Shown: in pieces, positions 1,309-44,297 of the stretch
Position numbering within the stretch: the stretch's first letter is position 1
How the letters are laid out: the number at the start of each line of letters is the position of its first letter
Source of the DNA: Patescibacteria group bacterium
GTDB lineage: Bacteria > Patescibacteriota > Minisyncoccia > 2-02-FULL-40-12 > GWA2-44-9
DNA: 47,160 bases
Reading direction: 5' to 3'
Assembly (NCBI GenBank): GCA_038065335.1
Contig: JBBTRD010000008.1
Span: forward strand, 1-47,160
Position numbers and translations under genes: made by a program
The notes under the pieces: generated by a model
Told to the model about the DNA's origin: nothing
Databases searched by the model: none
What the model saw: the letters and a program-made list of their open reading frames with translations, nothing else

Positions 1309-2304
1309 CTAGATTATTTTTTGACTCGCGATAACGTTGAGGATTTTTTTGACTCGTTCCATGCTTTCGCTGTCGTGAATTGAGAGCGTTTCTATTTGGA
1401 GCTTTCCGCCGGAGGCGGATCCGCCTTTGGCGGATTGTTTCAATTTTGCAATAATCTTTTTCATTTCGACTGGTTCGATCATGTCGGACTTTGAGATGAA
1501 TAAATATTCTCTCTTTTTTAACAGGAGCGGATTATACGCGCCGAGTTCATTGCGAATAATGCCATAATCGGTGACAGGATCGGTTGATTCCGCGGACAAC
1601 AAATGGAAGAGAGTATTAGTGCGTTCAACGTGTCGGAGAAACTTCACGCCCAACCCTTTGCCACCGGACGCGCCCTCTATAATTCCCGGCACATCGGCCA
1701 AAATTAAATCATAGTACACGCCCAAATGCGGCTCAAGCGTGGTAAAAGCATAATTAGCGACTTTGCTTTTGGCTCGAGTGAGTTCGTTTAAAAGCGACGA
1801 CTTGCCGGCATTAGGCAGACCAATCAAGCCAACATCGGCGATAAGTTTTAGTTCTAATCGGACCGTGTATTTTTCTCCGGCTTCGCCTTTTTGAAATTCT
1901 TTTGGGCTAGTATTAGTTGATGAGCGAAAATGATAATTACCCTTTCCACCTCGGCCGCCTTGAGCGACCATCATTTTCTCGCCGATTTTGGTGATTTCGA
2001 CGTCGATTTTTGTGTCTAAATTGTGAACAACCGTTCCAATGGGGACTTGGATAATTAAATCGGCGCCGGTTTTGCCGTCGTTGTACTGCCGGCCGCCAAT
2101 CCCGCCATCTTCGGCTTTGAAAACTTTACTATGACGCAAGCGCAACAAAGCTCCGAGATCAGCCACCCCTTCAACATAAACCTGACCGCCATTTCCGCCC
2201 GTCGCGCCCGTCGGCCCAAGAGACATCATATTCTTATTAAAAGAAACCGTTCCATCTCCACCATTCCCCGCCACCACCCTGATTGTAATATCATCAATCA
2301 ACAT
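1309..2304 (-). CDS. obg: GTPase Obg/CgtA
   Basis: 331 aa. Obg-fold Gly-rich N-domain (GNGGDGTVSF, GGNGG, GGRGGKGN), G1 GLPNAGKSS, G3 DVPGIIEGA. Confidence 0.93.
   Translation of the reverse strand: MLIDDITIRVVAGNGGDGTVSFNKNMMSLGPTGATGGNGGQVYVEGVADLGALLRLRHSKVFKAEDGGIGGRQYNDGKTGADLIIQVPIGTVVHNLDTKIDVEITKIGEKMMVAQGGRGGKGNYHFRSSTNTSPKEFQKGEAGEKYTVRLELKLIADVGLIGLPNAGKSSLLNELTRAKSKVANYAFTTLEPHLGVYYDLILADVPGIIEGASGGKGLGVKFLRHVERTNTLFHLLSAESTDPVTDYGIIRNELGAYNPLLLKKREYLFISKSDMIEPVEMKKIIAKLKQSAKGGSASGGKLQIETLSIHDSESMERVKKILNVIASQKII
1405..1434. repeat. 30-nt GGATCC-centred palindromic element, in frame in obg
   Basis: TCCGCCGGAGGCGGATCCGCCTTTGGCGGA, identical to 5630-5659. It is translated as SAKGGSASGG in obg. 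Confidence 0.9.
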
Positions 2305-5587: not shown

Positions 5588-7387
5588 ATGACTCATCAAG
5601 AAATACGAGAAAAATTTATTAAATTCTTCTCCGCCGGAGGCGGATCCGCCTTTGGCGGAGAAGTTCTTAAACACAAGACCGTGCCGTCTTTTTCGTTGTT
5701 GCCAACCGATTCGTCGGTGTTGTTTACGACCGCCGGAATGCAACAGTTTAAACCGTATTATACGGGTGATGGCGATGCCATGAAAGATTTTGGGTCGCTT
5801 AATACTGTTTCAATCCAAAAATCAATGCGCACTTCAGATATTGATTCCGTGGGGGATGAATCACACCTCACCTTTTTTGAGATGCTCGGCAACTTCTCCT
5901 TTGGCGGTTATTGGAAAAAAGAAGCCATTGAGTATGCTCACGAATTTATAACCAAAGAGATGGGCTTAAAAATAGATTATGTTTCTGTATTTGGTGGCGA
6001 ATCCTTCGACTCCGTTCAGGACAAATCCGGCAGTGTACCGCCAGATTTGGAATCAGAAAAAATATGGCAATCGCTTGATTCATCATTGGAAGTAAAGCGA
6101 GCGGGTCGAAACGATAATTTTTGGGGACCGACGGGCAGTGAGGGTCCTTGCGGTCCGACAACGGAGATTTACGTGAATGGTCTAGAAGTTTGGAATATTG
6201 TTTTTAATGAATATTACCAATCTGCCAATAAGCAATTGAACCCCCTTAAAATTAAAGGCATTGATACTGGTATGGGCCTTGAACGTTTAGCCATGGTCTC
6301 GCAGGGGAAAACAAATATTTTTGAAACCGATTTATTTGAACCCCTTATTCAAACGTTGCCGGATTCTTTAGATTTAAGAAAGAAAAGGATTATTAGTGAT
6401 CATTTGCGAGCCGCGGTTTTTTTGATTGCTGACGGTGTCACGCCATCCAACAAAGATCAAGGCTATATTTTGCGACGTCTTTTGCGCCGAGCGATGGTTT
6501 ATGAAAATCAAGCGAATTTATCACCCCAAGTATTTGAAAACGTTTTAAGAAAGGTAATCGAAATGTATGGCCGTGAATATCCGGAAATAAAATCAAAAAA
6601 AGACGAAATAGTAAACTCTTATTTCGCTGAATGGAATAAATTTAAGAAAGCCCTTTCATCTGGCATTAAGGAACTTGAAAAACTAGGAATCATTGATGCT
6701 CAATCAGCTTTTAAGCTCTATGAAAGTTATGGTTTGCCTTTTGAAGTGATAAAAGAAGTGGGCGGGGACAAAGCGTCGAATTTAACACGGAAAGACTTTG
6801 AAACGGAAAGGATCCACCATCAGGAAAAATCTCGAGCCGGCGCGGAAAAAAAATTCGGCGGACATGGCATGACTACTAGTGACCCTTCGACGGGCTCAGG
6901 GCTAGCTTCTGAAGAAGCTAGAAAGAAAACCAGACTTCACACAGCCACTCATATTGTGGTCGCGTCTCTAGAGAAAGTTTTAGGCGAATCATTAAAACAA
7001 GCTGGCGCTGATATCACCGCCGAACGCTTGCGTTTTGATTTTGCCTTTCCACGCAAAGTGACGCCGGAAGAATTGGCTGAAGCCGAGAAAATCGCCAATC
7101 AAGCCGTGGCCGATAATTTAGAAGTTTGGTTTGAGGAACTATCGCTGGAAGAAGCTTTTGCTTCCGGCGCTCATGGCGCTTTTGCCTATAAATATCCGCC
7201 CCGAGTCACCGTTTACACTGTTGGGGGCAAGAAAGGCCCCGACGCGAAGGTCGGGGTAGATTATTTCTCTCGTGAAATTTGCGGCGGCCCCCATGTCTCC
7301 CACACCGCTGAAATCGGTCATATTAAAATCACTAAAGAGGAATCCGTGAGCGGAGGAAATAGGCGAATTCGAGCCGTGATTGAATAG
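5588..7387 (+). CDS. alaS: alanine--tRNA ligase, compact form without a C-Ala domain
   Basis: 599 aa. Motifs FTTAGMQQFKPYY, FEMLGNFSFG, WGPTG..GPCGP, and editing-domain HTATH and CGGPHV. The ORF ends just after the editing domain. Confidence 0.92.
   Translation: MTHQEIREKFIKFFSAGGGSAFGGEVLKHKTVPSFSLLPTDSSVLFTTAGMQQFKPYYTGDGDAMKDFGSLNTVSIQKSMRTSDIDSVGDESHLTFFEMLGNFSFGGYWKKEAIEYAHEFITKEMGLKIDYVSVFGGESFDSVQDKSGSVPPDLESEKIWQSLDSSLEVKRAGRNDNFWGPTGSEGPCGPTTEIYVNGLEVWNIVFNEYYQSANKQLNPLKIKGIDTGMGLERLAMVSQGKTNIFETDLFEPLIQTLPDSLDLRKKRIISDHLRAAVFLIADGVTPSNKDQGYILRRLLRRAMVYENQANLSPQVFENVLRKVIEMYGREYPEIKSKKDEIVNSYFAEWNKFKKALSSGIKELEKLGIIDAQSAFKLYESYGLPFEVIKEVGGDKASNLTRKDFETERIHHQEKSRAGAEKKFGGHGMTTSDPSTGSGLASEEARKKTRLHTATHIVVASLEKVLGESLKQAGADITAERLRFDFAFPRKVTPEELAEAEKIANQAVADNLEVWFEELSLEEAFASGAHGAFAYKYPPRVTVYTVGGKKGPDAKVGVDYFSREICGGPHVSHTAEIGHIKITKEESVSGGNRRIRAVIE
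5630..5659. repeat. 30-nt GGATCC-centred palindromic element, in frame in alaS
   Basis: 30/30 identical to 1405-1434. It is translated as SAGGGSAFGG. Confidence 0.9.
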
Positions 7388-7390
7388 GAA

Positions 7391-8398
7391 ATGAAAGACA
7401 ATTTCTGGCAAAAACTAAAAGTCCTTCGACGGGTTCAGGATAAACCTTTTTTTGTGTTGGCGCCGATGGCGGATGTGACGGATATGGCTTTTCGGCAGAT
7501 TATAGTTGAATGTGGAAAACCGGATGTTTTATATACTGAATTTATATCGGCTTCAGGATTGTGTTCCGAAAAGGGTAAAGCAAAACTATTACCTCATTTA
7601 AAATTTAAAGAAAATGAGCGACCGATCGTGGCGCAATTGTTTGGTAGTGTCCCAAAACATTTTTATGAATGCGCAAAACTGATTGTGGAATTAGGGTTTG
7701 ATGGAATTGATATTAATATGGGTTGTCCGGCCGGCAAGATTATAAAACAAGATAGCGGTTCAGGATTAATTTTAAATTCGGAATTAGCGCAAGAAATTAT
7801 CCGAGAAACTAAGCGAGGAGTGTTACAGGCAAGACCTGTTAAACAGGTCTTGCCTGTAACGGTTAAGACTCGGATTGGTTATAACTCAATTATCACCGAA
7901 GAATGGATTTCAAAACTTATTGAAGCAAAGCCCGATGCGATTATTGTTCATGGTCGAACCATGAAGGAGGCTTCAAAAGTACCGGCCCACTGGGACGAAA
8001 TTGCCAAGGCGGGCAAACTTTGTCGCGAAGCGGGGATTCCGATTATTGGCAACGGTGATGTGATGAGTTATGCCGAAGGCGTGGAAAAAGCCAAACAGTA
8101 TAATTTAGATGGTATTATGGTCGGCCGCGGGGTTTTTCATAATCCCTGGTTTTTCGACCCGTCTATTAATCCAGCCGATAAAACGCCCCAAGACAGAATC
8201 GCTCTTCTAAAAAAACATGTTAATAACTTCATTGAACTTTGGAACCCGCCAGAGGCGGGCGCGCTTCAGGCGCGAAATTTTGCCGTTATGAAAAGATTCA
8301 TAAAGATATATATCAATGATTTTGAAGGCGCAAAAGAATTAAGAGAAAAATTAATGCAAATAAAAACTTCCACTGAAATACTAGCGCTCTTGAAATAA
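7391..8398 (+). CDS. dus: tRNA-dihydrouridine synthase
   Basis: 335 aa. Dus TIM-barrel motifs LAPMADVTD, DINMGCP, VKTRIG, HGRT. Confidence 0.9.
   Translation: MKDNFWQKLKVLRRVQDKPFFVLAPMADVTDMAFRQIIVECGKPDVLYTEFISASGLCSEKGKAKLLPHLKFKENERPIVAQLFGSVPKHFYECAKLIVELGFDGIDINMGCPAGKIIKQDSGSGLILNSELAQEIIRETKRGVLQARPVKQVLPVTVKTRIGYNSIITEEWISKLIEAKPDAIIVHGRTMKEASKVPAHWDEIAKAGKLCREAGIPIIGNGDVMSYAEGVEKAKQYNLDGIMVGRGVFHNPWFFDPSINPADKTPQDRIALLKKHVNNFIELWNPPEAGALQARNFAVMKRFIKIYINDFEGAKELREKLMQIKTSTEILALLK
8245..8274. repeat. tandem GC hairpins (CCCGCC-aga-GGCGGG plus CGCGC-ttcag-GCGCG), 30 nt, in frame in dus
   Basis: Seen directly in the sequence. It is translated as PPEAGALQAR. Confidence 0.8.
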
Positions 8399-8417: not shown

Positions 8418-10130
8418 ATGTCTTCGACGAAGATTATAAATGTTCTCAAGGATGATTCGTTTCAGGAGATTATTGATATTTTTAAAGCCACGTCGGCCGA
8501 AGAGGTGATATTTGTGTTACCCAAAAGCGCGCGGGCTTTTAAAAAAGAAGAGCAATTTGCATCGCTTCGAGAAGAAGCCAAGACACTGGATAAATCGGTT
8601 TCTTTCTTGTGTTCCAGTCTAGAAATTAATGATCTAGCCAAAAAGTATAGATTTGAAGTTCTTTTGGCCCATTCGGCGAGCTTAGGGCAAGCTCGTTCGC
8701 CGGAAGTACGAAAAAAGTCTAATCCATCTCGCCTAACACCAACTGAAACGAGTTCGATTGATGTAGTGAATGAAATAGAAGATTTTTACGCCGAACCAGC
8801 GACGAGTGATGATTCAATCTCAATTTCACAGCCAATAAAAACAGAAGAAGTATTTACCGATGACCGGCGCCTTGACGATATCTTTGTACCCGAAGCAGAA
8901 GATCAGCATAATGTGAAAGTAGCTGGTGCCCGTGAGAAAGCGTTGTTTGTTCAAGTAAATCAAGACAATAAAGAACACAAAATTCGGCGCCCCACCCATC
9001 GAACAGTTTTGATTTTTTTGACTTGTGCGACGGTCGTCATTCTGGGAGCGGTCATTTTTATCACCGCCGGAAAAGCCCGGATTACTATCAAGCCGGTCAG
9101 CCAACCACTTGATCTTAGTCTGACTATATTTACTTCAGATGATGTTTCCTCCACTAGTTTGGCAAACATGGCCATTCCCGGTCAGCTGTTTAATATTCAA
9201 AAAACTGTTTCTCAAGATTTTACCGCGACTGGCCGTGTGGATGTTGCCCAAAAAGCGCGCGGGGCGATTACTGTCTATAATGAACTTTCGACGGATCAAC
9301 CATTGATAGCCACGACTCGATTTGAATCAGCCGATCGTCATATTTTTCATACCCTAACTTCAATCGTGGTGCCGGCCGGCAAAATTTCTAGCGGTAAATT
9401 TGTGCCCGGCAGTAAAGAGGTTCAGCTTATCGCTGATAAGGCCGGTTCCGAGTATAACGTTCCGGCAGGCCCGTTCACGATTCCGGCGTTTAAAGAACAA
9501 GGGGCTGCGGAAAAATATCAAAAGGTTTACGGTCGATCAACCGCTCCTATTCTTAACGGTACCAGCGGCCAATCAACAATCGTAACCGAAACTGATTTAA
9601 GCGCCGCCAGACAAACCCTCACCACTCAACTCACCGCTAATATTCAAGACGAATTGGAAACTCAAATTAATGGTCTAAAAATTATTAATGATCGTCAAAT
9701 TGTCGTGAGTAATCCTGTATCAACTAGTCCCGTTGACGCAAAGACGGCCACTTTTCAAGTTAATCTTTCTGGTTCACTCAAAACCGTTGGTTTTAAAGAA
9801 TCTGACCTTAACGCTCTCGTTGCTCAATACGTTGATACTCAAAAAAATATGACCACCTTGCCTGACAAACTCGTACTGACGTACGATAAAACTAAGTGGG
9901 ACGACACTAAAAACGGTCTCTCTTTCACAATTCACGTCACTGGCCCAAGTTACACCAAGATTGACCAACAAAAAATTATTACTGATTTATTAGGTAAGAA
10001 TGACGCGGAAATGAGAGCCTATCTGGGCGCAGTTACAGGTATTTCGTCAGCTCATGTCTCCTTGTCTCCATTCTGGGTCAAATCCATTCCCAGTAATAAG
10101 GATAAGGTACAAGTAGAACTTTCATATTAA
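8418..10130 (+). CDS. hypothetical membrane-anchored protein (570 aa)
   Basis: Long ORF with a cytoplasmic N-domain, a low-complexity linker, one TM helix (VLIFLTCATVVILGAVIFI) and a large beta-rich ectodomain. I cannot assign a family from sequence alone. Confidence 0.75.
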   Translation: MSSTKIINVLKDDSFQEIIDIFKATSAEEVIFVLPKSARAFKKEEQFASLREEAKTLDKSVSFLCSSLEINDLAKKYRFEVLLAHSASLGQARSPEVRKKSNPSRLTPTETSSIDVVNEIEDFYAEPATSDDSISISQPIKTEEVFTDDRRLDDIFVPEAEDQHNVKVAGAREKALFVQVNQDNKEHKIRRPTHRTVLIFLTCATVVILGAVIFITAGKARITIKPVSQPLDLSLTIFTSDDVSSTSLANMAIPGQLFNIQKTVSQDFTATGRVDVAQKARGAITVYNELSTDQPLIATTRFESADRHIFHTLTSIVVPAGKISSGKFVPGSKEVQLIADKAGSEYNVPAGPFTIPAFKEQGAAEKYQKVYGRSTAPILNGTSGQSTIVTETDLSAARQTLTTQLTANIQDELETQINGLKIINDRQIVVSNPVSTSPVDAKTATFQVNLSGSLKTVGFKESDLNALVAQYVDTQKNMTTLPDKLVLTYDKTKWDDTKNGLSFTIHVTGPSYTKIDQQKIITDLLGKNDAEMRAYLGAVTGISSAHVSLSPFWVKSIPSNKDKVQVELSY

Positions 10131-10142
10131 CCGCCTGTTGAT

Positions 10143-10211
10143 CCCGAACGAAGTCTGGCTCGCGCTCAGAGCGCGAGTCCGAAGGACCTTAGCTAGGCTA
10201 CTTCGTACGGG
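10143..10211. repeat. 69-nt structured palindromic element, intergenic copy (reverse orientation, about 78 percent identical to the copies at 22214 and 24305)
   Basis: Position-by-position comparison of its reverse complement with 22214-22282 gives 54/69 matches. TTGA direct repeats at 10138-10141 and 10213-10216. Confidence 0.85.
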
Positions 10212-10330
10212 ATTGACGTATCTTATTAGGTTTGATAGTATATAAACACTGAATTGACCACGATTACTAAGTGGCGTAGGAGCTTCTCCGATGCCCACTC
10301 TTGGTGGACGTCTTTTTTTCAGTACTATAT

Positions 10331-17887: not shown

Positions 17888-18633
17888 AAATCTCCGTCAA
17901 ATCTAAAACGGTTCTGGTGGGAGTATTAAAAACCAGAAGGGATCAGAAAATTCTTCTAGAAAAGCATTGGTATCGCATTCCCGTTTTGCATCTTCCAAAA
18001 CGAAATTTTAAATATATTGCTTTTTATCAACCGCTAGGGTTTGGAAAACACGGTAAACGGATTGAATATTACGCTCAAGTTTCAAAGACTTCGATTTCAA
18101 AAAGAATCAATTTGTTGCCCGATGAGTCCAATCATCCTCGCGCCAGCGATGACTATAAACGGTTTGAGTTTAAAGAAATCCTAAAACTTGAGAAGCCCAT
18201 CAGAAATATCATTCCCCGCAGAATCGTGTTTGGTTTTACAACCTTGAAAGCTCTGCTCTCATCAAAAGATATTCTGCAACTCTATGGTGTGTTGCCGACC
18301 GAACAAATTGTTCAACGAGCACTGAAACGTTTTGGCATCCAACCTATAATCGAACATACCGTCTCTGCTCAAGGCCGCTGTTATCGTATTGACTTGGCTC
18401 TTATTATTGTGCGCCCGCCCGCCTCTGGCGGGAATGGGCGAATAGCCATAGAATGTGATAACCTTAAAGCCCATTCCACTAAAACCCAAATCCAAAAAGA
18501 TAAAACCAAGGATCGCTTCCTCAAATCTATCGGTTGGCACGTCATCCGTCTCACCGAAAAAGACATCGTCGAAAATCTCCATTTCTGTATCGCCCGTATA
18601 ATAAAAACCATCAAAGCCCTCGGTGGCCAATGA
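17884..18633 (+). CDS. DUF559/Vsr-like PD-(D/E)xK endonuclease-domain protein
   Basis: 249 aa. The C-terminal YRIDLA...IAIECDNLKAH...D..R...L...GW.V.RL pattern is typical of DUF559. The N-terminal domain is unassigned. Confidence 0.7.
   Translation: MKISVKSKTVLVGVLKTRRDQKILLEKHWYRIPVLHLPKRNFKYIAFYQPLGFGKHGKRIEYYAQVSKTSISKRINLLPDESNHPRASDDYKRFEFKEILKLEKPIRNIIPRRIVFGFTTLKALLSSKDILQLYGVLPTEQIVQRALKRFGIQPIIEHTVSAQGRCYRIDLALIIVRPPASGGNGRIAIECDNLKAHSTKTQIQKDKTKDRFLKSIGWHVIRLTEKDIVENLHFCIARIIKTIKALGGQ
18411..18440. repeat. 30-nt nested GC palindrome (CGCCC-GCCCGCC-tct-GGCGGG-aat-GGGCG) in frame in the DUF559 gene
   Basis: Seen directly in the sequence. It is translated as VRPPASGGNGR and shares CCCGCCTCTGGCGGG with fmt 39599-39613. 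Confidence 0.85.
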
Positions 18634-19978: not shown

Positions 19979-21347
19979 AGCTCTTATAATTTTGAAAACC
20001 GGGGCCAACGTTTTTTTGACGGGAGAACCGGGTTCGGGTAAAAGCTACACTGTTAACGAGTACGTGCGATATTTGCGCGCCCATAATATTGAGCCGGCCA
20101 TTACGGCTTCGACGGGCATCGCCGCCACTCATATCGGCGGAATGACGATTCATTCGTGGAGCGGAATTGGAATTCACACCAGTTTAGATAAGCAGGATAT
20201 CCGCCGAATTGCTTCGAGCAAGCACGTCGGAAAGCGAATGCGCGAAACTAATGTTTTAATAATTGACGAATGTTCAATGCTTCCGCCTAAAACGCTCGAT
20301 ATGGTTGAGGCCGTCTGTCGGGAAGCGCGCAAAAGTTACGAACCTTTCGGCGGACTTCAAATTATTTTGGTAGGTGATTTTTTTCAACTCCCGCCGATTA
20401 TTAAACGAAAAACTGAAGACCTGCCTGCCGGACAGGCAGGCGATTCCAATCAGATTATCTTGCTTGATGAACCCGAAGTTCGTTTTGCTTATGATTCTTC
20501 GGCTTGGACGCGAGCTAAACCTATTACGTGTTATCTCACCGAACAACACCGTCAAGACGATAAAAATTATTTGGGCATTCTTTCCGCAATTCGAGATAAT
20601 ACTTTTAACATGAAGCATGTTGGCCATCTCGAAAGCCGACGCACGACTTATGACAAAATCTCCGATGAAGCGCCCAAACTTTTTTCTCACAACGTGGACG
20701 TAGATTTAGTTAATAAGAATATGCTTTCTCAATTGCCCGGCGAACTGATGGAATTTCCAATGCGATCTTACGGCGTACCGAAATTAATAGCGACCCTAAT
20801 AAAGGGCTGCCTGTCGCCGGAATTTTTGAATTTAAAAATCGGAGCCTCGGTAATGTTCACGAAAAATAATCCCCGCGCCGGATTTGTAAATGGCACGCTT
20901 GGTATTGTTGAAGATTTTCGTAAAGACGATAACTACCCCATGATACGAACTCGGGCCGGACGACTCGTGGTCGCCGAACCCATGAACTGGGGCATTAAGG
21001 AAGGGGGCATATCTAAAGCCACGATCACCCAGATGCCATTGCGCTTGGCTTGGGCCATTACGGTTCACAAAAGCCAAGGGATGAGTCTCGATGAAGCCGT
21101 AATGGATTTAAGCGAGGTTTTTGAATACGGCCAAGGTTATGTCGCCCTCTCGCGAGTCAGACGATTATCCGGCGTCCATTTGATTGGCTGGAATCAGCGC
21201 GCTTTTCAGGTTCATCCCGAAGTCATCGCTAAAGAAAAAGAGTTCCAAATCGCTTCCAGTCTGGCCGAAAAAGAATATCGGGAATTGTCTCCAAAAATTA
21301 TTACCCAAAGACACGAATTTTTTATTAAAATGTGTACTAAAAAATGA
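19965..21347 (+). CDS. Pif1/RecD-like SF1B helicase
   Basis: 460 aa. Motifs GEPGSGKS, TASTGIAA, LIIDECSM, VGDFFQLPP, HRQ, TVHKSQG, YVALSRV. Confidence 0.88.
   Translation: MTQIEALIILKTGANVFLTGEPGSGKSYTVNEYVRYLRAHNIEPAITASTGIAATHIGGMTIHSWSGIGIHTSLDKQDIRRIASSKHVGKRMRETNVLIIDECSMLPPKTLDMVEAVCREARKSYEPFGGLQIILVGDFFQLPPIIKRKTEDLPAGQAGDSNQIILLDEPEVRFAYDSSAWTRAKPITCYLTEQHRQDDKNYLGILSAIRDNTFNMKHVGHLESRRTTYDKISDEAPKLFSHNVDVDLVNKNMLSQLPGELMEFPMRSYGVPKLIATLIKGCLSPEFLNLKIGASVMFTKNNPRAGFVNGTLGIVEDFRKDDNYPMIRTRAGRLVVAEPMNWGIKEGGISKATITQMPLRLAWAITVHKSQGMSLDEAVMDLSEVFEYGQGYVALSRVRRLSGVHLIGWNQRAFQVHPEVIAKEKEFQIASSLAEKEYRELSPKIITQRHEFFIKMCTKK
20420..20440. repeat. CCTGCCTGCCGG-a-CAGGCAGG palindrome in frame in the helicase gene
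   Basis: Same core as 39298-39317 and 43881-43900. It is translated as LPAGQAG. Confidence 0.8.
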
Positions 21348-23470
21348 AAATTGCCCTCATTACCCTCAACTATAACGGTGCGGAAAGCACCATCAAACTT
21401 TTGGAATCTCTACAGAATCAGACCGACCCTGATTTTTCCCTTATTGTCGCCGACAATGGTTCTACGGACATCCAAAAACTCCGAGATTATTGTGAAAATA
21501 AACCTATTCATATCATTGAAAATGGGGCTAATTTAGGATTCGGCGGAGGTTGCAACATTGCCATAAAGAGGGCCCTCAAAAATGGGGCGAGTTGGCTTGT
21601 TTTGTTAAATAACGACACTTGGGTCGAATCTGACTTTATCAGCCATTTAAAAGCCATTCTAGAGCGTACAAACGGCCTTGTCGGGTTACCTATTGACGAG
21701 GGGGATGGAGAAATTGCCATGGGTGGCCGACTTGAGTGGTTGAGTCCGACATTGAGTCATAATCACAGTTTTCTCAACCATAAACAAAATGCGCGAAAAA
21801 ACGGAAAAAACGTTTGCTATGCCATTGGCGGTGGGATGGCTATTGATTCATCGGCCGTCGAAAAAATCGGTTATTTTGACGAAAATTATTTTCTTTATTT
21901 TGAAGATGCGGATTTATCAATGCGGGCCCATGAAGCAGGCGTTCCAATAGCTTTTCCGACGAAACCGATCATTCATCACACTGTTTCAACAACCACGAGA
22001 AAACTCGGCGCGCCGTTACTTTTGCGTTACCACTATCGTAATGCTCTTTATTTTAATTTTAAAAACGCGCCTTTGTTTTATAAAATTGGCGCGATTTTTT
22101 GGAGTGTCATCATTTTCGTCAAACAACTGGTTAAATTATTAAGCAACATTCATCCTGCCGAGTCGCGAGCCATTCTGGCCGGCATTATTGATTTTTATCA
22201 AGAAAGGATGGGTCCCGTTAGAAGTAGCCTCGCCGAGGTCCGAAGGACTCGCGCCAAAGGCGCGAGCGAGACTTCGTACGGGATGGGCCGCATCTCCAAA
22301 AAAATTAAAGTCGGCATTGAATGTGAGCAAATTGAGGGCGAAATCTGGGGCGTGGGAAAGATTATTACCAAACTTTTAGAAAATATCGCTTCTCGGCCGG
22401 AACTGGAAAAAGATTTTGAATTTCATCTTTATTTCAAATCAAAAATTCCAAAACTATTATTCCTAGACAATTCAATATTTCATAAAAAAGTTATTGAGCA
22501 GCCGTTCCGGCACAAATCGTTTGTATTTTATTACTATGTTTTGCTTCCGATTCAGCTTTGGTTTGAACGGCTCGATGTCATGTTTTTCCCAAATTATATG
22601 TTGCCCATTATTTTTTTCGGCAATTCTGTCGTCATGCTAACCGAGGATATATATTACGAGATGCGGTCAAAACAACAACGATTCCATCATCGTTTGGCTT
22701 ATCGGGTTTTTGCCACTTGGGCCACCTGGCGAGCCAATAAAATTATGGCCATTTCGCAAACTTCAAAGAAAGAACTGGTTCGATTGTTTAACATTGAACC
22801 AGCCCGCATCGTGGTAAATCTACTCGCGGTAGATTCGGCAAAAATAGATTCTTTTTCCAACATTGGAAATTGCCCGCCCGCCGAAGCTTTAGCGAAGGAG
22901 GGGAAATTGAAAAATGAAAATTATCTATTGTTCGTCGGCCAATCTTTTCCCCGTCGACATTTAGCGGAATCATTGCTCGCCTTTGAAAAAATAGCGTCGG
23001 AATTTCAAGATTTGAAATTTATTATTGTTGGCCCGGACAAATATAATCCGCCGAGGATCAGACAACTTCAACAAGATATCAATTCTCGACTCGGCGGTGA
23101 GAGAATAATTTGGCATGAACGCGTATCCCAAGAAGAATTATCGCAACTTTATGCTCACACTCTGGCAACGATTTATATTTCATCCCGCGAAGCCTTTGGT
23201 TTGCCTCCGTTGGAAGGCCTGGCTCAAGGAAGCGTGCCAATAATCGCCGAAAATGCTTTGGGCCATGAGTTGTTTGAAGAGTGCGCTGTTTTTATCGCTA
23301 ATCCCGATTCAGTAGATGATATCGCTTCAGCTTTGCGTGAGGCCATGACAAATTCAACACTCCGTGAGAAAATAAAAGCGCATGCGCCAGAAATAGTTGA
23401 TCGTTACACTTGGCGCGCTCACACCGATCGGTTTCTAGAAATAATCAAATCTATGACCCGGCATGCCTAA
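21344..23470 (+). CDS. bifunctional glycosyltransferase (N-terminal GT2, C-terminal GT4)
   Basis: 708 aa. GT2 motifs ITLNYNG, ADNGSTD, LLNNDT, FEDADL. GT4 motif EAFGLPPLEGLAQGSVPI. The ATGA overlaps the upstream stop. Confidence 0.88.
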   Translation: MKIALITLNYNGAESTIKLLESLQNQTDPDFSLIVADNGSTDIQKLRDYCENKPIHIIENGANLGFGGGCNIAIKRALKNGASWLVLLNNDTWVESDFISHLKAILERTNGLVGLPIDEGDGEIAMGGRLEWLSPTLSHNHSFLNHKQNARKNGKNVCYAIGGGMAIDSSAVEKIGYFDENYFLYFEDADLSMRAHEAGVPIAFPTKPIIHHTVSTTTRKLGAPLLLRYHYRNALYFNFKNAPLFYKIGAIFWSVIIFVKQLVKLLSNIHPAESRAILAGIIDFYQERMGPVRSSLAEVRRTRAKGASETSYGMGRISKKIKVGIECEQIEGEIWGVGKIITKLLENIASRPELEKDFEFHLYFKSKIPKLLFLDNSIFHKKVIEQPFRHKSFVFYYYVLLPIQLWFERLDVMFFPNYMLPIIFFGNSVVMLTEDIYYEMRSKQQRFHHRLAYRVFATWATWRANKIMAISQTSKKELVRLFNIEPARIVVNLLAVDSAKIDSFSNIGNCPPAEALAKEGKLKNENYLLFVGQSFPRRHLAESLLAFEKIASEFQDLKFIIVGPDKYNPPRIRQLQQDINSRLGGERIIWHERVSQEELSQLYAHTLATIYISSREAFGLPPLEGLAQGSVPIIAENALGHELFEECAVFIANPDSVDDIASALREAMTNSTLREKIKAHAPEIVDRYTWRAHTDRFLEIIKSMTRHA
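22214..22282. repeat. 69-nt structured palindromic element, in frame (frame 0) in the GT2/GT4 linker
   Basis: 68/69 identical to 24305-24373. It is translated as PVRSSLAEVRRTRAKGASETSYG and flanked by ATGGG at 22208-22212 and 22283-22287. Confidence 0.92.
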
Positions 23471-25103
23471 ATTATTAAATCCACTTTTTATATTTCATCT
23501 TATTTTTGTGGCGTTAGTTTTAATCGGCGAAATTCCGCGTGAACTTGTTATTTATGAAACCGGTCTATTGGTTTTATATTTCTTGTTTGCTTCCATTGAA
23601 GACGGGTTAATATTTTTTGTTCGTTCAATTCCGCTTTTTATCGCCATCCCGCTGACCGCGAATTACGACAACCTCAATCAATGGCGGATTCTGGCAATTA
23701 TTTTATTCGGCAAATGGCTGTTCACTCGGGAGACCTGGCATTACTTCGGAGCTTGGCTAGTTTTATTATTCCGAAAGCCTTGGATTGTCATCAAAGAGCA
23801 TCCTTGGGCGGCTTTGTTTAAGATTTTAGCAATCCTTAGCCTGTTGTCTTTGTGGCACGCTCCTGACCGGATTGAAGGTTTAAAACGGATTATTTATTTT
23901 ATCAACGCCGCTCTCGTCGCCGTTGTTATTGTTTATCCGCCTCGAAGCCATGAGTTTATCAAACGACTCATTAAAAATATTATCGCCCCGATCATTATTG
24001 TCGTTCTCGTTGGCGTCGTTCAAGTTGCCTCCACTTATTTTATAGACATTTATCAATTTATGAGAATTTGGGGCGAGGGAATTCAACTTAGAGAGTTTGG
24101 CGCGATGTGGTCGTATATCGCCGTCAATGTTGGTAATACCTGGTTTGCTTACTTCGGCGACCAACTCTCGCTCCGAGTGTTTTCCCTCTTTCCCGACTCC
24201 CATTCGTTTCCAATATTTTTACTGCTTGGCCTGCCCGCGTTTTTTGCTTGGACTCTTGTCAAGCCGCTCGGTCGAGCGACAAGAATGCGCGATATGCTTT
24301 TTACCCCGTTAGAAGTAGCCTCGCCGAGGTCCGAAGGACTCGCGCCAAAGGCGCGAGCGAGACTTCTTACGGGGTTTACCCGTGGCAAGCTAGCTGTGCT
24401 TTGGATTCCTTTAATATTCTTGATGATGATTCTTTCTGGCACTCGAGGCATCTGGATAGGCGGAGTCATAATGACGATTTGGATTCTCTTTGTCTTTTTG
24501 TATATGCGCCGCAATAGAGTCGCGGCCGAAAAAATCAATATCTTTCGATACATATCGTACTATATATTTATTTTTTTCTTATTGTTTGCCGTGGCTTATC
24601 CTATATTTTCTTCCCCTCAATTCTTGGTATCTAAAGGAGACGCTTTCCTGCTTCAGCAACGATTTAAGTCAATCTTTGATTTCGGCGAAACTTCGAATAG
24701 CCAACGGATTGAAATTTGGAAAAAAAGTTTGGTTTCTATTGAACATAATCCTGTGTTTGGAGTTGGTATTGGAAATTTCCCCGTCGTTCTCGGCCAAAAC
24801 ATTAAACTAACTAAGGCTGGTTCGTCGGCTCATAACATTTATCTGCAAGTCGCTTCGGAAATGGGGATTCCGGCGGCATTGTTTTTTTTATGGTTCATCT
24901 GGTTGGTTTTGAAACAAACCTACAAACGCTTCATAAAATCTACCGAGCCGGCGTATCAGGCCTATTTCGGCGGGCTCCTAATCACCCTGCCTTGGATTCT
25001 GGCTTATTTAATGACTGACGTGGCAATTTTTGACGAACGAGCTCTTCTTCTCTGTGTCGCCACCCTCGCGATTGTGGCCACGCCTTTGCACGCTCATGAA
25101 TAA
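23463..25103 (+). CDS. O-antigen ligase/polymerase (Wzy_C-like) family membrane protein
   Basis: 546 aa. Polytopic membrane protein with loop motifs SGTRGIWIG and SAHNIYLQVASEMGI. Confidence 0.8.
   Translation: MPKLLNPLFIFHLIFVALVLIGEIPRELVIYETGLLVLYFLFASIEDGLIFFVRSIPLFIAIPLTANYDNLNQWRILAIILFGKWLFTRETWHYFGAWLVLLFRKPWIVIKEHPWAALFKILAILSLLSLWHAPDRIEGLKRIIYFINAALVAVVIVYPPRSHEFIKRLIKNIIAPIIIVVLVGVVQVASTYFIDIYQFMRIWGEGIQLREFGAMWSYIAVNVGNTWFAYFGDQLSLRVFSLFPDSHSFPIFLLLGLPAFFAWTLVKPLGRATRMRDMLFTPLEVASPRSEGLAPKARARLLTGFTRGKLAVLWIPLIFLMMILSGTRGIWIGGVIMTIWILFVFLYMRRNRVAAEKINIFRYISYYIFIFFLLFAVAYPIFSSPQFLVSKGDAFLLQQRFKSIFDFGETSNSQRIEIWKKSLVSIEHNPVFGVGIGNFPVVLGQNIKLTKAGSSAHNIYLQVASEMGIPAALFFLWFIWLVLKQTYKRFIKSTEPAYQAYFGGLLITLPWILAYLMTDVAIFDERALLLCVATLAIVATPLHAHE
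24305..24373. repeat. 69-nt structured palindromic element, in frame (a different frame) in the Wzy-like gene
   Basis: It is translated as PLEVASPRSEGLAPKARARLLTG and flanked by TTTAC at 24300-24304 and 24375-24379. Confidence 0.92.
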
Positions 25104-28045: not shown

Positions 28046-29293
28046 ATGATTAAAAAAATATCATTACCCCTCGCGATTATCATCTGTCTCGTTCTTGGGT
28101 TTGGCGGCGGAATATTGTACACGAATAAAAATACGCCGACCATCCCGCCAATCCAACAATTAATAAATCAAGATGTCGGTAAAGTTCAGAATGTTGATTT
28201 TTCATTTTTTTGGAAAGTTTGGAGTGATCTTTCCGCTAAATACGTAGATAAATCGAAACTTGATACCCAAAAGATGGTCTACGGCGCCATCGGGGGAATG
28301 GTTGACGCGGTCGGTGATCCTTATACGGTCTTCTTTGAACCAACCCAAGCCAAACAGTTCGCCCAAGAAATTTCCGGCGCTTTTGGCGGAGTTGGCATGG
28401 AAATTGGCGTGAAAAATGACATTTTAACCATCATCGCGCCGTTACCCAATACCCCAGCGGCTAGAGCCGGAATTTTAGCGGGCAATAAAATTTTAAAAAT
28501 AAATGGCGCTTCGACCCAAGGTCTCTCGACTGAAGAAGCGGTCAGTACTATTCGAGGCAAAGTCGGCACCAAAATTACTATCACTATCTCCGGAAGCGAC
28601 GATAAGCCCCGCGATATCACCATGACCCGGGAAACCATCAAAGTCCCGACCGTTGTCTGGAAAATGCTAACTAACCCTTCAACAAGCTCAGGGCAAGCTA
28701 GTAAAAATATCGCTTATATTCAGGCTTATCAATTTAATGAGAATATCAACGGTCAGTTTAAAAAAGCCGTTGATGAAATAGAAAAATCAAACCCCAAAGC
28801 CGACGGTATCATTCTCGATTTACGCAATAATCCCGGCGGTCTTCTTGATTCCGCCATCAACCTTGCCGGTTATTTTGTCGCCAAAGGTCAGCCTGTGGTC
28901 AGTGAAGTCTTTGGCGACGGCACAATAAATAAATTCACTTCTGACGGAAATGCCGTTTTGGCTAAATATCATGTCGTCATTCTCGTGAACGGCGGTTCCG
29001 CCTCGGCTTCGGAAATTTTGGCCGGCGCCCTTCACGATAATTTGGGCTTGAAATTAATCGGCGAAAAAACATTCGGCAAGGGCGTCGTTCAAGAATTAGT
29101 AAATCTCGATGACGGCGCTTCGCTTAAAGTGACGGTCGCCCGCTGGTTCACCCCGGCCGGCACTAACATCTCCGAAAAGGGGATTGAACCCGACATCAAA
29201 GTCGAGCTCACCGACGACCAAAAGAAAAACATCATTTTCGGCGATTTGTCGGTTGACCCGCAATTACAAAAAGCATTGGAGTACGTCAGATAA
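28046..29293 (+). CDS. ctpA: S41 carboxy-terminal processing peptidase
   Basis: 415 aa. TM anchor, PDZ domain (AGILAGNKILKING) and catalytic GGSASASEILAG ... TFGKG. Confidence 0.9.
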   Translation: MIKKISLPLAIIICLVLGFGGGILYTNKNTPTIPPIQQLINQDVGKVQNVDFSFFWKVWSDLSAKYVDKSKLDTQKMVYGAIGGMVDAVGDPYTVFFEPTQAKQFAQEISGAFGGVGMEIGVKNDILTIIAPLPNTPAARAGILAGNKILKINGASTQGLSTEEAVSTIRGKVGTKITITISGSDDKPRDITMTRETIKVPTVVWKMLTNPSTSSGQASKNIAYIQAYQFNENINGQFKKAVDEIEKSNPKADGIILDLRNNPGGLLDSAINLAGYFVAKGQPVVSEVFGDGTINKFTSDGNAVLAKYHVVILVNGGSASASEILAGALHDNLGLKLIGEKTFGKGVVQELVNLDDGASLKVTVARWFTPAGTNISEKGIEPDIKVELTDDQKKNIIFGDLSVDPQLQKALEYVR

Positions 29294-39232: not shown

Positions 39233-39359
39233 GGTTAAGAACCTGCCTTTTGACCCAGTAGCGGAAGGGGTCCCAGCGAAGCTGGGGAAACCGACGGCCT
39301 GCCTGCCGGCAGGCAGGGACTGGTTTCCCGGGTCTGGGGCAAAAGGCAGGTTCTTAACC
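39233..39359. repeat. 127-nt MITE-like element with 20-bp perfect terminal inverted repeats, filling the def-fmt spacer
   Basis: GGTTAAGAACCTGCCTTTTG (39233-39252) and CAAAAGGCAGGTTCTTAACC (39340-39359). Central 20-nt palindrome CCTGCCTGCCGGCAGGCAGG (39298-39317). Confidence 0.85.
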
Positions 39360-39364
39360 GCAAT

Positions 39365-40267
39365 ATGAAAATAATTTTCTTTGGGACATCTGAATTTGCG
39401 GTACCGGCGCTAGAGACACTCCATGGTGCTGGTTTTGATGTTACGGTCATCACTATGCTCGATCAACCGGTCGGCCGAAAAAAGATTCTCACACCGACGC
39501 CAGTTAAGGTCGCGGCGGAAAAACTTGGTCTCAAAGTTCTCCAGCCACTGAAACTAAAGGATGATGTATTTTTTGAAGAATTTTTAGCCCTGGGCGAACC
39601 CGCCTCTGGCGGGCAGTTCCAACCTCCCGATTTTTGTGTTATCGCCGCCTACGGCAAAATTATCGCCGAACGATATATAAATACCCCTAAATATGGGTTT
39701 TTAAATATTCATCCTTCTCTTCTTCCGAAGTATCGAGGACCAACACCCATTCAGACTGCAATTCTCAATGGTGAAGATACAATTGGTGTCTCCATCATAC
39801 AAATTGATAAAGACGTGGACCATGGCGGAATTTTTTCGAAGCAAGAATTACGAATTACGAATTACGAAAACTACAAAAAAATTTATGATAAGCTCGCTGA
39901 ACTTGGGGCAAAATTATTGGTTGAAACAATCCCTAAAATTATTTCCGGAGAAATCAAGCCGAAGGAGCAAGACCACAGCCAGGCGATATTCACGAAAATA
40001 TTTACTCGAGAAGATGCCCGCATTGATTGGTCTCGTCCGCCTCAAGAAATTTATAACCAAATCCGCGCCCTCAACCCCGAACCCGGCACTTGGACAACAT
40101 GGAACGACAAAGTAGTGAACATCAAAGCCGCCTCCTTCGCTAAAACTACGGAAGGCCACAACAAGCAACTAAAATTGCTCATTGTACAACTTGAAGGGAA
40201 AAAAGAAACATCCATGTCTGATTTTCTCTCTGGCCATCCCGATTTCGATGTCTCTCAATTAAAATAA
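39365..40267 (+). CDS. fmt: methionyl-tRNA formyltransferase
   Basis: 300 aa. MKIIFFGTSEFAVP..., NIHPSLLPKYRG, downstream of def. Confidence 0.94.
   Translation: MKIIFFGTSEFAVPALETLHGAGFDVTVITMLDQPVGRKKILTPTPVKVAAEKLGLKVLQPLKLKDDVFFEEFLALGEPASGGQFQPPDFCVIAAYGKIIAERYINTPKYGFLNIHPSLLPKYRGPTPIQTAILNGEDTIGVSIIQIDKDVDHGGIFSKQELRITNYENYKKIYDKLAELGAKLLVETIPKIISGEIKPKEQDHSQAIFTKIFTREDARIDWSRPPQEIYNQIRALNPEPGTWTTWNDKVVNIKAASFAKTTEGHNKQLKLLIVQLEGKKETSMSDFLSGHPDFDVSQLK
39599..39613. repeat. CCCGCC-tct-GGCGGG hairpin in frame in fmt
   Basis: Identical 15-mer to the one within 18411-18440. It is translated as PASGG in both genes. Confidence 0.8.
39845..39865 (+). repeat. (GAATTAC)x3 heptanucleotide tandem repeat inside fmt
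   Basis: Three perfect units, 21 nt, in frame (ELRITNY). Confidence 0.9.
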
Positions 40268-40874: not shown

Positions 40875-40924
40875 AACTTACACTTTAGAAATAGCTCGTA
40901 CGAGCTATTTCTAAAGTGTAAGTT
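40875..40924. terminator. 50-nt perfect palindrome centred on GCTCGTACGAGC
   Basis: AACTTACACTTTAGAAATAGCTCGT|ACGAGCTATTTCTAAAGTGTAAGTT, 4 nt downstream of the 40929..41768 stop. Confidence 0.75.
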
Positions 40925-43616: not shown

Positions 43617-44240
43617 ATGGCTATCCCCGTAAACGATTTAAAACCCAAAACATATTTTATTTATGAGGGCCAACCCTACGTGGTTTTGGAAACTCATCAT
43701 TTAAAGATGCAACAGCGTCGACCGACGGTGCAGGTTCGGATGCGCAATCTCATCAATGGTAAAATGCTCGAACGCAATTTCGCCCAGTCGGATATTTTTG
43801 AACCCGCCGACGTCGAGCACCAAAAAGTTAAATATCTTTACGCTCATCGCGATCAGTATTGGTTTTCATACGAAAAAGATCTGCCTGACCGGCAGGCAGG
43901 ACCGGCCAAGCGTTTTGAATTAAAATCCGAAATTATCGGTGATTCTGCTAAATTTCTTAAGCCCAATACCTTAATTGATGCCATTGCTTTTTCCGCCGAA
44001 GGCGGATCCGCCTCCGGCGGAGAGTCTCAAATCATCAGCATTGAATTGCCCATCAAAATGGAGTTCAAAGTTACTGAAGCTCCGCCAGCCATCCGGGGCG
44101 ACACCGCTCAAGGGGGGGTCAAACAAGCGACGATTGAAACCGGCGCCTCAATCAACGTTCCTCTCTTTATTAACCAAGGCGATACTATCTTGATCAACAC
44201 CGAAACCGGTGATTATGTAGAACGAGTCAATAAAGGTTAA
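43617..44240 (+). CDS. efp: elongation factor P (with two in-frame repeat insertions)
   Basis: I chose the start at in-frame ATG 43617 (MAIPVNDLKPKTYFIYEGQPYVVLE...). The C-terminal motif is GDTAQGG.K.ATIETGA...VPLFI..GD.I.I.T..G.Y..R. Confidence 0.9.
   Translation: MAIPVNDLKPKTYFIYEGQPYVVLETHHLKMQQRRPTVQVRMRNLINGKMLERNFAQSDIFEPADVEHQKVKYLYAHRDQYWFSYEKDLPDRQAGPAKRFELKSEIIGDSAKFLKPNTLIDAIAFSAEGGSASGGESQIISIELPIKMEFKVTEAPPAIRGDTAQGGVKQATIETGASINVPLFINQGDTILINTETGDYVERVNKG
43881..43900. repeat. CTGCCTG-accgg-CAGGCAG palindrome in frame in efp
   Basis: Same core family as 20420-20440 and 39298-39317. It is translated as LPDRQAG. Confidence 0.8.
43992..44021. repeat. 30-nt GGATCC-centred palindromic element, in frame in efp
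   Basis: TCCGCCGAAGGCGGATCCGCCTCCGGCGGA, with 29/30 matches to the reverse complement of 1405-1434. It is translated as SAEGGSASGG. Confidence 0.9.
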
Positions 44241-44261
44241 TTAAACTCACAAAAAAATGAT

Positions 44262-44297
44262 ATTTTATAAATGGCTCGTACGAGTCATTTATAAAAT
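44262..44297. terminator. 36-nt near-perfect palindrome centred on GCTCGTACGAG, between convergent efp and 44303..44944
   Basis: ATTTTATAAATGGCTCGT|ACGAGTCATTTATAAAAT, with one G-T position. It shares its core with 40875-40924. Confidence 0.7.

Follow-up and report, generated by a model that had tools for sequence, protein, structure and literature searches.

A 30-nt palindromic doublet inserted in frame in housekeeping genes of Patescibacteria resembles REP-type selfish elements

The stretch of DNA analysed in this work, called the window below, spans 47,160 nt (positions 1 to 47,160 of contig JBBTRD010000008.1, assembly GCA_038065335.1) and belongs to a Patescibacteria group bacterium. Three of its housekeeping genes host in frame a 30-nt palindromic sequence, the 30-mer, made of two inverted 15-nt hairpins. 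On balance, though by no large measure, we favor the view of the 30-mer as a selfish, palindromic and non-autonomous mini-element, of the kind of the doublets of repetitive extragenic palindromic sequences (REPs), known as REPINs, and of the Rickettsia palindromic elements (RPEs), plausibly mobilized by an enzyme akin to the REP-associated tyrosine transposases (RAYTs). It appears to rank among the smallest REP-like mobile elements of selfish type so far known, and to be tolerated since it encodes a harmless Ser/Ala/Gly loop. The 30-mer is a real, orphan REPIN/RPE-like element; its mobilizing enzyme is unproven.

The sequence TCCGCCGGAGGCGGATCCGCCTTTGGCGGA matches 30/30 at both 1405-1434 and 5630-5659, and matches the minus strand at 43992-44021 with 1 mismatch. 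The search thus returned the three copies claimed in a preliminary description of this DNA, identical in obg and alaS and reverse complemented with one mismatch in efp, and 0 chance matches were scored in 100 dinucleotide-preserving shuffles. Copies and host genes are as follows.

1309..2304, minus strand: obg, GTPase Obg, 331 aa; Pfam GTP1_OBG and MMR_HSR1, Obg matches in PDB
1405..1434, in obg: copy 1, on the plus strand TCCGCC-GGA-GGCGGA followed by TCCGCC-TTT-GGCGGA; minus strand reading SAKGGSASGG
5588..7387, plus strand: alaS, short alanyl-tRNA synthetase (AlaRS), 599 aa; Pfam tRNA-synt_2c and tRNA_SAD, AlaRS matches in PDB
5630..5659, in alaS, past the conserved FF motif: copy 2, 30/30 identical to copy 1; reading SAGGGSAFGG
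43617..44240, plus strand: efp, elongation factor P (EF-P), 207 aa from ATG 43617; Pfam EFP_N and Elong-fact-P_C
43992..44021, in efp domain II: copy 3, TCCGCC-GAA-GGCGGA followed by TCCGCC-TCC-GGCGGA; reading SAEGGSASGG
Predicted junction-spanning peptide, as an example: ...AIAFSAEGGSASGGESQ...

All three copies of the window are read as S-A-x-G-G-S-A-x-G-G, and the translations bear out the Gly/Ser/Ala frame proposed for the three of them. The true start of EF-P is the ATG at 43617, as homologues open with MAIPVNDLK. The window is ~43% GC and 87% coding, and EF-P and Obg homologues place the host with Parcubacteria/Yanofskybacteria-like Patescibacteria. The AlaRS of the window (599 aa) includes the catalytic and tRNA_SAD domains and no long C-terminal domain; one relative is 644 aa. 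Doublet architecture, T-T-Y|R-A-A site, spread among phyla, the presence of at least five palindrome families and of a RAYT whose own doublet resides in dus, all discussed below, extend the preliminary description.

Copy counts, flanks, loops and frames outside the window derive from the at least 119 stretches of contigs of metagenome-assembled genomes (MAGs) in which the pattern TCCGCCNNNGGCGGATCCGCCNNNGGCGGA was found, in a scan of one genome per GTDB species. The unit joins two 15-nt hairpins with zero spacer, and in each of them a 6-bp stem closes a 3-nt loop; the consensus is TCCGCC-RRA-GGCGGA then TCCGCC-TYY-GGCGGA. Over 128 copies among the matches listed, the first loop is RRA (AGA, AAA, GGA, GAA and others), the second TYY (TTT, TTC, TCC, TCT and others). 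The second hairpin is therefore an inverted copy of the first and, judged by its sequence, the architecture is that of a REP doublet. As many as 256 of the 272 15-mers among the matches listed sit in perfect doublets, and most of the other 16 adjoin a variant hairpin. True solo hairpins, which could have marked the ends of an autonomous element, are rare, and none was found paired around a gene. Both homo- and heterodimers exist, the latter exemplified by TCCGCC+TCCTCC, CATGCC+TCCGCC and CCCTCC+TCCGCC. The nested palindrome of the preliminary description is hence palindromic as claimed, but is better described as two tandem inverted 15-nt hairpins. Energy minimization favors a single 13-bp hairpin; this structure, albeit thermodynamically preferred, is unsupported by covariation. 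Variants were selected on nothing but their distance in sequence from the consensus; the two-hairpin model finds compensation at 20 of their 40 mutated stem positions, the single long hairpin at none of the 40. In an alignment of 19 sequences, 4 of which, as a caveat, had been picked for perfect two-hairpin pairing, changes on both sides are found in 8 of 12 pairs of the two-hairpin structure, a figure reached by 0 of 500 shuffles, and in 3 of 13 pairs of the long hairpin, which cannot be told apart from shuffles. The pattern of compensatory changes indicates that stem pairing is preserved in the form of two distinct hairpins. The Rfam gathering search of the whole window returned two tRNAs only and no family for the 30-mer, and E-value searches around two copies returned generic miRNA-like hairpin matches far below threshold.

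Comparison of empty and filled sites defines the block that was added. Alignments to solved AlaRS and EF-P structures exhibit clean 10-residue gaps at the insert positions, and EF-P relatives at 91-95% identity lack the insert. At the DNA level, empty efp sites read GCT TTT|GAT GAC and GCC TTT|GAG GAC, filled sites TTT|30 nt|GAG/GAA. The comparison implies that the inserted block corresponds exactly to TCCGCC...GGCGGA; its borders are unambiguous, and the target is not duplicated. The empty alaS site, in the relative L217, reads TAT TTT|AAA TCG. The notion that each insert is exactly 10 codons long, held in the preliminary description, is consequently correct for efp and alaS; in Obg the net gain over orthologues lacking the insert is 8-9 residues, because neighboring loop residues differ too. 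The Obg insert is found in the window and in the two closest relatives (90% and 86% identity), and is absent from all relatives at or below 84%. Mapping of the inserts on structure was informative for EF-P. The AlphaFold model of the window protein retains the three-domain fold, and residues 92-95 and 129-135, both in loops between beta strands, are the only ones with a confidence score pLDDT under 50; the former correspond to a second palindromic insert (LPDRQAGP), the latter to the 30-mer. Taken together, the sites compared show that the 30-mer was added between T-T-Y and R-A-A as a block of exactly 30 nt, and that its target was not duplicated. The view that it is an in-frame element similar to RPEs, much shorter and not duplicating its target, gains support from both empty/filled sites and flanks. 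Neither of the two outcomes named beforehand as contrary to it, gap-free orthologues and a 30-mer that does not recur, was observed.

Flanks conform to T-T-Y | element | R-A-A: among the matches listed, 109/126 copies (87%) have T at -2, and 97/126 (77%) have A at +2. As the same bases are already found in empty sites, they denote a target preference. Direct-repeat flanks of at least 2 nt were found in just 2 of 126 copies among the matches listed, and target-site duplications were seen neither in empty/filled comparisons nor in the flank survey. A longer mobile unit including the downstream flank was considered and rejected, since there is no conservation at +7 to +9. Some copies are centered in other palindromes: 9 among the matches listed have a flanking stem of at least 6 bp, vs about 2 expected.

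At least 79 of 125 copies elsewhere, as well as the 3 window copies, are located inside open frames of at least 450 nt; the remainder include intergenic copies. Within these open reading frames (ORFs), the S-A-x-G-G-S-A-x-G-G frame is used by 68 of the 79 copies elsewhere and by the 3 window copies, that is by 71/82 (87%) among the matches listed. The 30-mer is free of stop codons in all three frames, and the phase-0 share of TTYRAA sites in window coding sequences is 47% (frame bias P about 1e-13); hence, the bias is best read as selection against Pro-rich and Arg-rich frames. In genes, the 30-mer survives almost solely in the flexible S-A-x-G-G-S-A-x-G-G frame. The 30-nt length and the 87% single-frame bias indicate that the insert is probably translated. 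An intein or intron is improbable, 10 codons being far too short for an intein and no Rfam match being found. In-frame copies are oriented more often so as to encode K/E...S than ...F..., and G.U does not exceed A.C in the sense strand (22 vs 36). These two observations suggest protein-level filtering rather than mRNA structure at loop positions, and pairing of loops at the mRNA level was rejected for the missing G.U bias in the sense strand.

In orthologous filled pairs the four-fold sites of host genes are saturated (identity 0.33-0.53), but within the insert only 0-2 of 9 such sites are different (per-pair P between 0.0002 and 0.03); the palindrome is therefore either conserved or regenerated as nucleic acid. 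In the tolerated frame, TCC GCC nnn GGC GGA, every third position that is four-fold degenerate is paired to the first position of a codon; the need for small residues, combined with stem pairing, would thus fix the whole sequence. This lock between coding and pairing would help explain the near identity of the 30-mer across very distant hosts. Stem pairing may persist owing to selection, to repair templated by the hairpin itself, to conversion by other copies, or to re-insertion. The same data bear on the possibility that the inserts are convergent Gly/Ser/Ala linkers or low-complexity loops, incidentally identical in nucleotides. The peptide is plausible as a flexible linker, inserts reside in surface loops, and the prevalence of K/E...S orientations fits a protein-level feature. 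Yet, unrelated genes share 30/30 nucleotides, the palindrome undergoes compensatory stem changes, copies are found in non-coding DNA and in other frames, four-fold sites are conserved, and insertion takes place at a defined DNA site, TTY|RAA. Protein-level convergence, which we consider very improbable, is effectively refuted by such nucleotide-level evidence. The preliminary description had used the identity of the copies to rule out protein-level homology; the 30/30 identity is now joined by stem compensation and conservation of four-fold sites.

The 30-mer recurs in at least 119 genome-contig stretches. All carriers among the matches listed are MAGs and, by record titles alone, most are labelled Patescibacteria, of many classes. 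Further labels among the matches listed are Omnitrophota, Kiritimatiellae, Lentisphaerae, Verrucomicrobiota, Planctomycetes and Ignavibacteria, in addition to Chloroflexota/Dehalococcoidia, Margulisbacteria, Firestonebacteria, Desulfotomaculaceae and 'Gammaproteobacteria'. Carrier loci among the matches listed range in GC content from 0.30 to 0.70, and some contigs are 0.7-1.65 Mb long; GC spread and long contigs argue against the 30-mer being the product of one lineage or one technology. In IMG/VR the 30-mer was found in two viral contigs only, GenBank phages have no 30-mer, and PLSDB plasmids gave a single weak partial match (E 0.1, 72% of the query). A phage vector was discarded on these grounds. 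In one of the viral contigs (L127:390-419) the copy makes up the C-terminal end (...SALGGSASGGK*) of an ORF for a reverse transcriptase of group II intron type.

The central GGATCC, recalling a BamHI-site linker, the restriction of listed carriers to MAGs, and the lack of the 30-mer in cultured phages and of a convincing plasmid copy could raise the suspicion of adapter or linker contamination, chimeric reads, or assembly errors. However, an identical insert-bearing Obg protein is encoded by at least 14 contigs from independent assemblies, obtained from several Hainich groundwater samples, which excludes an assembly artefact; the efp region with its insert was likewise found on independently assembled contigs. 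Moreover, copies reside on the long contigs mentioned above, insertions are exactly in frame, and orthologous copies exhibit point mutations, decay and compensatory changes. A technical artefact, to which we assign hardly any credit, is refuted by independent assemblies, long contigs, frame and orthologue mutations.

Protein termini may be a favored tolerated location. In a ribosomal protein operon of Patescibacteria (L022) the element and decayed forms thereof are found at N- and C-termini of ribosomal proteins (MDKGINKFSARGGSAFGGKRG..., ...FSAEGGSARGGEGH, ...ISAKGGPASGGK). In four other loci (L002, L005, L050 [Kiritimatiellae MAG] and L119) the 30-mer is embedded in longer composite repeats, having identical flanks at several sites. 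The composite repeats of these larger genomes translate into junk ORFs ('RRRIRLWR', 'HPERSEEPALSEVEGISRGEIP').

The 30-mer multiplies within genomes. Loops are identical in 43% of same-genome copy pairs and in 5% of pairs between genomes among the matches listed, which denotes propagation within lineages. Separate lineages, moreover, have the 30-mer in the same permissive surface loops of EF-P and Obg. As an example, the same insert occupies the same loop in distant EF-P relatives (80% and 78% identity), while nearer ones lack it. In other EF-P alleles the insert is shortened or mutated (SAKGGPASGG, SAKGRPTSGG, SASGG) or is a different one, and decayed and shortened copies are found in P0034, P0047, P0053 and P0057. 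Changes of the full-insert state at one loop, by gain or loss, number at least 5 in EF-P (120 relatives) and at least 3 in Obg (121 relatives), as counted by Fitch parsimony on neighbor-joining trees, which are rough given the short proteins.

Near-invariant four-fold sites within saturated genes, covariation of stems as two hairpins, constancy of the stem sequence across very different hosts, and recurrence of inserts at the same EF-P and Obg loops would also suit a nucleic-acid signal maintained by the host. The 30-mer could be a site for a conserved dimeric protein, a structure affecting mRNA stability, processing or ribosome pausing, or a DNA-uptake or self-recognition tag, and coding would be a matter of accommodation. 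This is the weaker of the rival hypotheses, and we regard it as improbable, because close relatives lack the insert, in EF-P as in Obg, and decayed, truncated copies exist. In addition, host genes are unrelated and copies occur between genes too, 3 copies per 47 kb are few in comparison to uptake sequences, the missing G.U excess gives no sign of selection for mRNA loop pairing, and no Rfam family is known. Sequence conservation, in turn, is explicable by pairing plus coding constraints, or by turnover.

According to the REPIN/RPE-like view that we favor, and by analogy to known systems, a HUH/Y1 (RAYT-type) transposase acting in trans, or a comparable hairpin-binding enzyme, would recognize the hairpins in single-stranded DNA. 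Such an enzyme would make its cuts at TTY|RAA and at both outer feet of the doublet, and purifying selection would then purge copies in Pro-rich or Arg-rich frames and in structured protein regions. The 30-mer would have no function for host proteins.

A Pfam analysis of all window ORFs detected no transposase. The search for RAYTs covered ~57 kb of this genome, and a RAYT-like Y1_Tnp gene (L218:4964-5635) was identified ~4.1 kb past the right end of the window, between Nramp and hrcA. The gene is flanked by the inverted REPs AACAGG-TCTTG-CCTGTT and AACAGG-CAAGA-CCTGTT. In a related genome (L130:10028-10678) a RAYT is found in the same Nramp - RAYT - hrcA position; REP stems are alike in the two (AACAGG/CCTGTT), loops are different. 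Shared position and stems are consistent with vertical inheritance of the RAYT-REP pair in Patescibacteria. The REP flanking the RAYT of this genome is also found as a doublet in the window.

7824..7858, dus reading frame: RAYT-type REP doublet TACAGG-CAAGA-CCTGTT, A, AACAGG-TCTTG-CCTGTA, with a 1-nt spacer

Dus has 8 extra residues at this doublet relative to the solved structure 1vhn. The doubling inside dus of the RAYT-flanking REP qualifies it as a bona fide REPIN within a housekeeping frame of the same genome. Nearly all of 80 related RAYT loci (L135-L214), derived from groundwater metagenomes, several of the same aquifer, are flanked by REP hairpins. In almost every case the own REP is found at both sides, and a further copy often lies within the RAYT gene, ~150-300 nt from its start. 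Perfect inverted doublets of 38-46 nt with zero spacer occur at several of these loci, among which L195, L196 and L154. A tblastn search of the at least 119 carrier loci with a RAYT gave a match in L036 only, not adjoining the 30-mer.

Several observations weigh against a RAYT-type selfish element. REP/RAYT systems are normally lineage-specific and extragenic, but the 30-mer is mostly intragenic and has the same stems across labelled phyla, even if the labels are those of MAG record titles. TCCGCC hairpins flank a RAYT in 0 of the 80 metagenomic loci, and flank neither the RAYT of this genome nor those of L130 and L036. Both flanks of the 30-mer are constrained, and IS200/IS605-type chemistry is expected to constrain one only. 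The GTAG and CGTC tags of the described REP superfamilies are absent from hairpin ends, which read TCCGCC/GGCGGA, and the flanks are T-T-Y and R-A-A. Transposition is inferred from comparative data, and neither filled/empty polymorphism within a population nor excision products were observed. Stem conservation could instead reflect a host-level function. Finally, 2-4 codons directly 3' (sense) of each insert also differ from those of close relatives, as listed.

43989-44030: efp, DDA changed to ESQ
5660-5671: alaS, KSKG changed to EVLK
1390-1404: obg, NNNPT changed to KLQ

E-x-Q trails all three full EF-P inserts and is found in no allele lacking the insert. The altered codons may correspond to post-insertion adjustments or to a slightly messier insertion event; a pure 30-nt cut-and-paste does not account for them.

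Altered codons fit a serious rival hypothesis, which dispenses with a dedicated enzyme and which we deem rather unlikely. The palindrome could stall replication and spread by template switching at microhomologies via TT...AA, or alleles could be transferred by homologous recombination after DNA uptake; flanks would in either case be inherited microhomology. No cognate transposase was found in the window, in carrier loci, in the 80 RAYT loci and in the ~57 kb of genome; flank constraint is symmetric and target-site duplications are missing; E-x-Q is restricted to insert-bearing EF-P alleles; and several unrelated palindrome families colonize coding regions of this genome. All of this fits spread without a transposase. 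On the other hand, the shared flank is just 2-3 nt, which is very little homology, and other palindrome families of the window lack TT/AA flanks. No extended recombination tract surrounds the efp insert, as just 2-3 adjoining codons resemble insert-bearing alleles. Moreover, finding the same 24 stem bases across labelled phyla requires horizontal transfer of a template, which homologous recombination is unable to supply between distant genomes.

A bolder scenario is tentatively conceivable, in which the 30-mer is an active element moving horizontally between phyla, integrated bluntly at TTY|RAA by a putative hairpin-specific enzyme and locked in sequence, since each synonymous position would be paired to a non-synonymous one in the sole frame tolerated, or, alternatively, a functional signal of ultra-small, possibly episymbiotic bacteria and of their neighbors. 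A 30-nt element moving horizontally would be among the smallest mobile DNAs known.

The REPIN/RPE-like reading rests on comparison to known systems. The 30-mer resembles REPINs and RAYT-associated REPs as a short GC-rich hairpin unit arranged in inverted pairs, forming homo- and heterodimers and amplified within genomes; some copies sit at the center of other palindromes, and the RAYT of this genome is itself flanked by inverted REPs whose doublet is also intragenic. It differs in being much smaller (15-nt units, 6-bp stems, zero spacer, 30 nt in total), mostly intragenic, devoid of GTAG or CGTC tags, and endowed with stems which, instead of being species-specific, are shared by many labelled phyla; no RAYT flanked by its hairpin was found in the 80 loci and ~57 kb of genome. 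RPEs are likewise in-frame palindromic repeats of housekeeping ORFs, including tRNA synthetase genes, whose peptide is tolerated on the protein surface, and which are read as selfish DNA. RPE-1, reportedly described by Ogata et al. in 2000, is said to be about 100-150 bp and confined to Rickettsia. Compared by description, the 30-mer is 30 nt long, occurs in many uncultured phyla by MAG labels, and stands out for its extreme bias to a single frame and for its defined site, TTY|RAA.

GC clusters and double-hairpin elements populate the mitochondrial genomes of yeast, Allomyces and other fungi, placozoans and green algae. They are similarly very short, GC-rich and made of two hairpins in an AT-richer genome, insert in coding, rRNA and intergenic sequences, and reuse the same sites in related genomes. 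They reside in organelles, and their sequences are unrelated to the 30-mer. We know of no enzyme encoded by mitochondrial GC clusters and, to our knowledge, they are neither biased to one dominant frame nor cross bacterial phyla. [quoted passage not shown] IS200/IS605 elements do not duplicate the target, require a short specific adjacent sequence and use DNA hairpins. They have a one-sided target and longer ends, while both flanks of the 30-mer are constrained (T at -2 87%, A at +2 77% among the matches listed), and the palindrome hides strand information.

Palindromic amphipathic repeat coding elements (PARCELs; PMC2996958) are of greater length, are repeated in tandem within genes, and code for amphipathic modules of surface proteins. 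As in PARCELs, for which a horizontal distribution among distant microbes has been proposed, palindromy ensures that the same kind of peptide is encoded by either strand; the 30-mer, in contrast, is a single 10-codon insert in housekeeping enzymes. Intragenic REPs and REP dimers are documented (PMC3733652), among them Rickettsia RPE-4 and RPE-6, which are REP-like, and insertions into genes for tRNA synthetases, and the GTAG and CGTC REP superfamilies (Di Nocera 2013) are defined by the terminal tetranucleotide (PMC3733652). Searched in full text, the literature gave no description of this 30-mer, nor of REPINs in Patescibacteria. What sets the 30-mer apart from documented intragenic REPs is the size, the absence of tags, the mainly intragenic location, the strict frame, the defined blunt target, the spread over labelled phyla, and the failure to find a cognate RAYT.

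If the REPIN/RPE-like reading is correct, essential conserved proteins of the candidate phyla radiation (EF-P, Obg, AlaRS, ribosomal proteins, DnaK) would be routinely remodelled by tiny selfish palindromes, and these elements would be responsible for a large share of indels between close relatives. Odd Gly/Ser/Ala, 'RRIRLWR' and similar peptides found in metagenomic protein databases would be explained, and sites of insertion would provide a natural map of insertion-tolerant loops. The 30-mer would be a compact case of sequence under coding and base-pairing constraint at once, a test case for the spreading of 30-nt DNA across distant hosts, and a way into the REP/RAYT biology of uncultured lineages. 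It would also be a practical warning for MAG annotation, alignment and phylogenomics.

The 30-mer is not the only palindrome in the window, where GC-rich hairpins are ~4 times as abundant as in shuffled sequence. Palindromic inserts of coding regions fall into at least 5 families, which include the TCCGCC doublet, CCCGCC hairpins, CCTGCC...GGCAGG ('LPAGQAG', 'LPDRQAGP'), CTCAGGGCAAGC ('PSTSSGQAS') and a 69-nt composite. In the comparison to a syntenic relative, most indels of at least 7 residues between the two genomes correspond to such palindromes. Sequence stretches of interest are listed below.

39584..39613: diverged heterodimer TTAGCC-CTG-GGCGAA followed by CCCGCC-TCT-GGCGGG, in frame in fmt (LALGEPASGG), a 10-residue insertion relative to Fmt of L132
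8245..8274: CCCGCC-AGA-GGCGGG adjoining CGCGC-TTCAG-GCGCG, in dus, Pro-rich frame NPPEAGALQAR
18418..18432: single hairpin CCCGCC-TCT-GGCGGG, in a DUF559/REase-like gene, reading PASGG
22214-22282 and 24305-24373 (plus), 10141-10212 (inverted): 69-nt composite palindromic element, two copies 99% identical
43881-43904 (efp), 20410-20441 (Pif1-like helicase), 38294-38325 (priA), 39272-39317 (intergenic): CCTGCC(TGCC)GGCAGG family; LPDRQAGP, LPAGQAG, LPAGR
6883-6910 (alaS), 8669-8696, 28675-28702 (S41 peptidase): CCCTTCGACGGGCTCAGGGC... family; PSTGSGLAS, HSASLGQAR, PSTSSGQAS

The efp copy of the CCTGCC family corresponds to an 8-residue gap relative to solved structures and close relatives, and to a low-confidence loop in the AlphaFold model. 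Peptides of the CCCTTCGACGGGCTCAGGGC family resemble the 'SGQA'-type motifs of many metagenomic hypothetical proteins. The two 99% identical copies of the 69-nt composite reside in adjacent glycosyltransferase and O-antigen-ligase genes, and are read in two different frames (PVRSSLAEVRRTRAKGASETSYG vs PLEVASPRSEGLAPKARARLLTG); the inner hairpin of the composite, CTCGCGCC-AAA-GGCGCGAG, has the CGCC-AAA-GGCG apex in common with the 30-mer. A perfect, loopless 50-nt palindrome with 25-nt arms is found in intergenic DNA at 40875-40924, and a related 43-nt sequence lies 3.3 kb off, at 44253-44295; both are AT-rich, unlike the GC-rich families. In the def-fmt gap, at 39233-39359, a 26-nt inverted repeat (96% complementary) surrounds 75 nt of stacked GC-rich hairpins, and the whole looks like a composite, MITE-like intergenic element.

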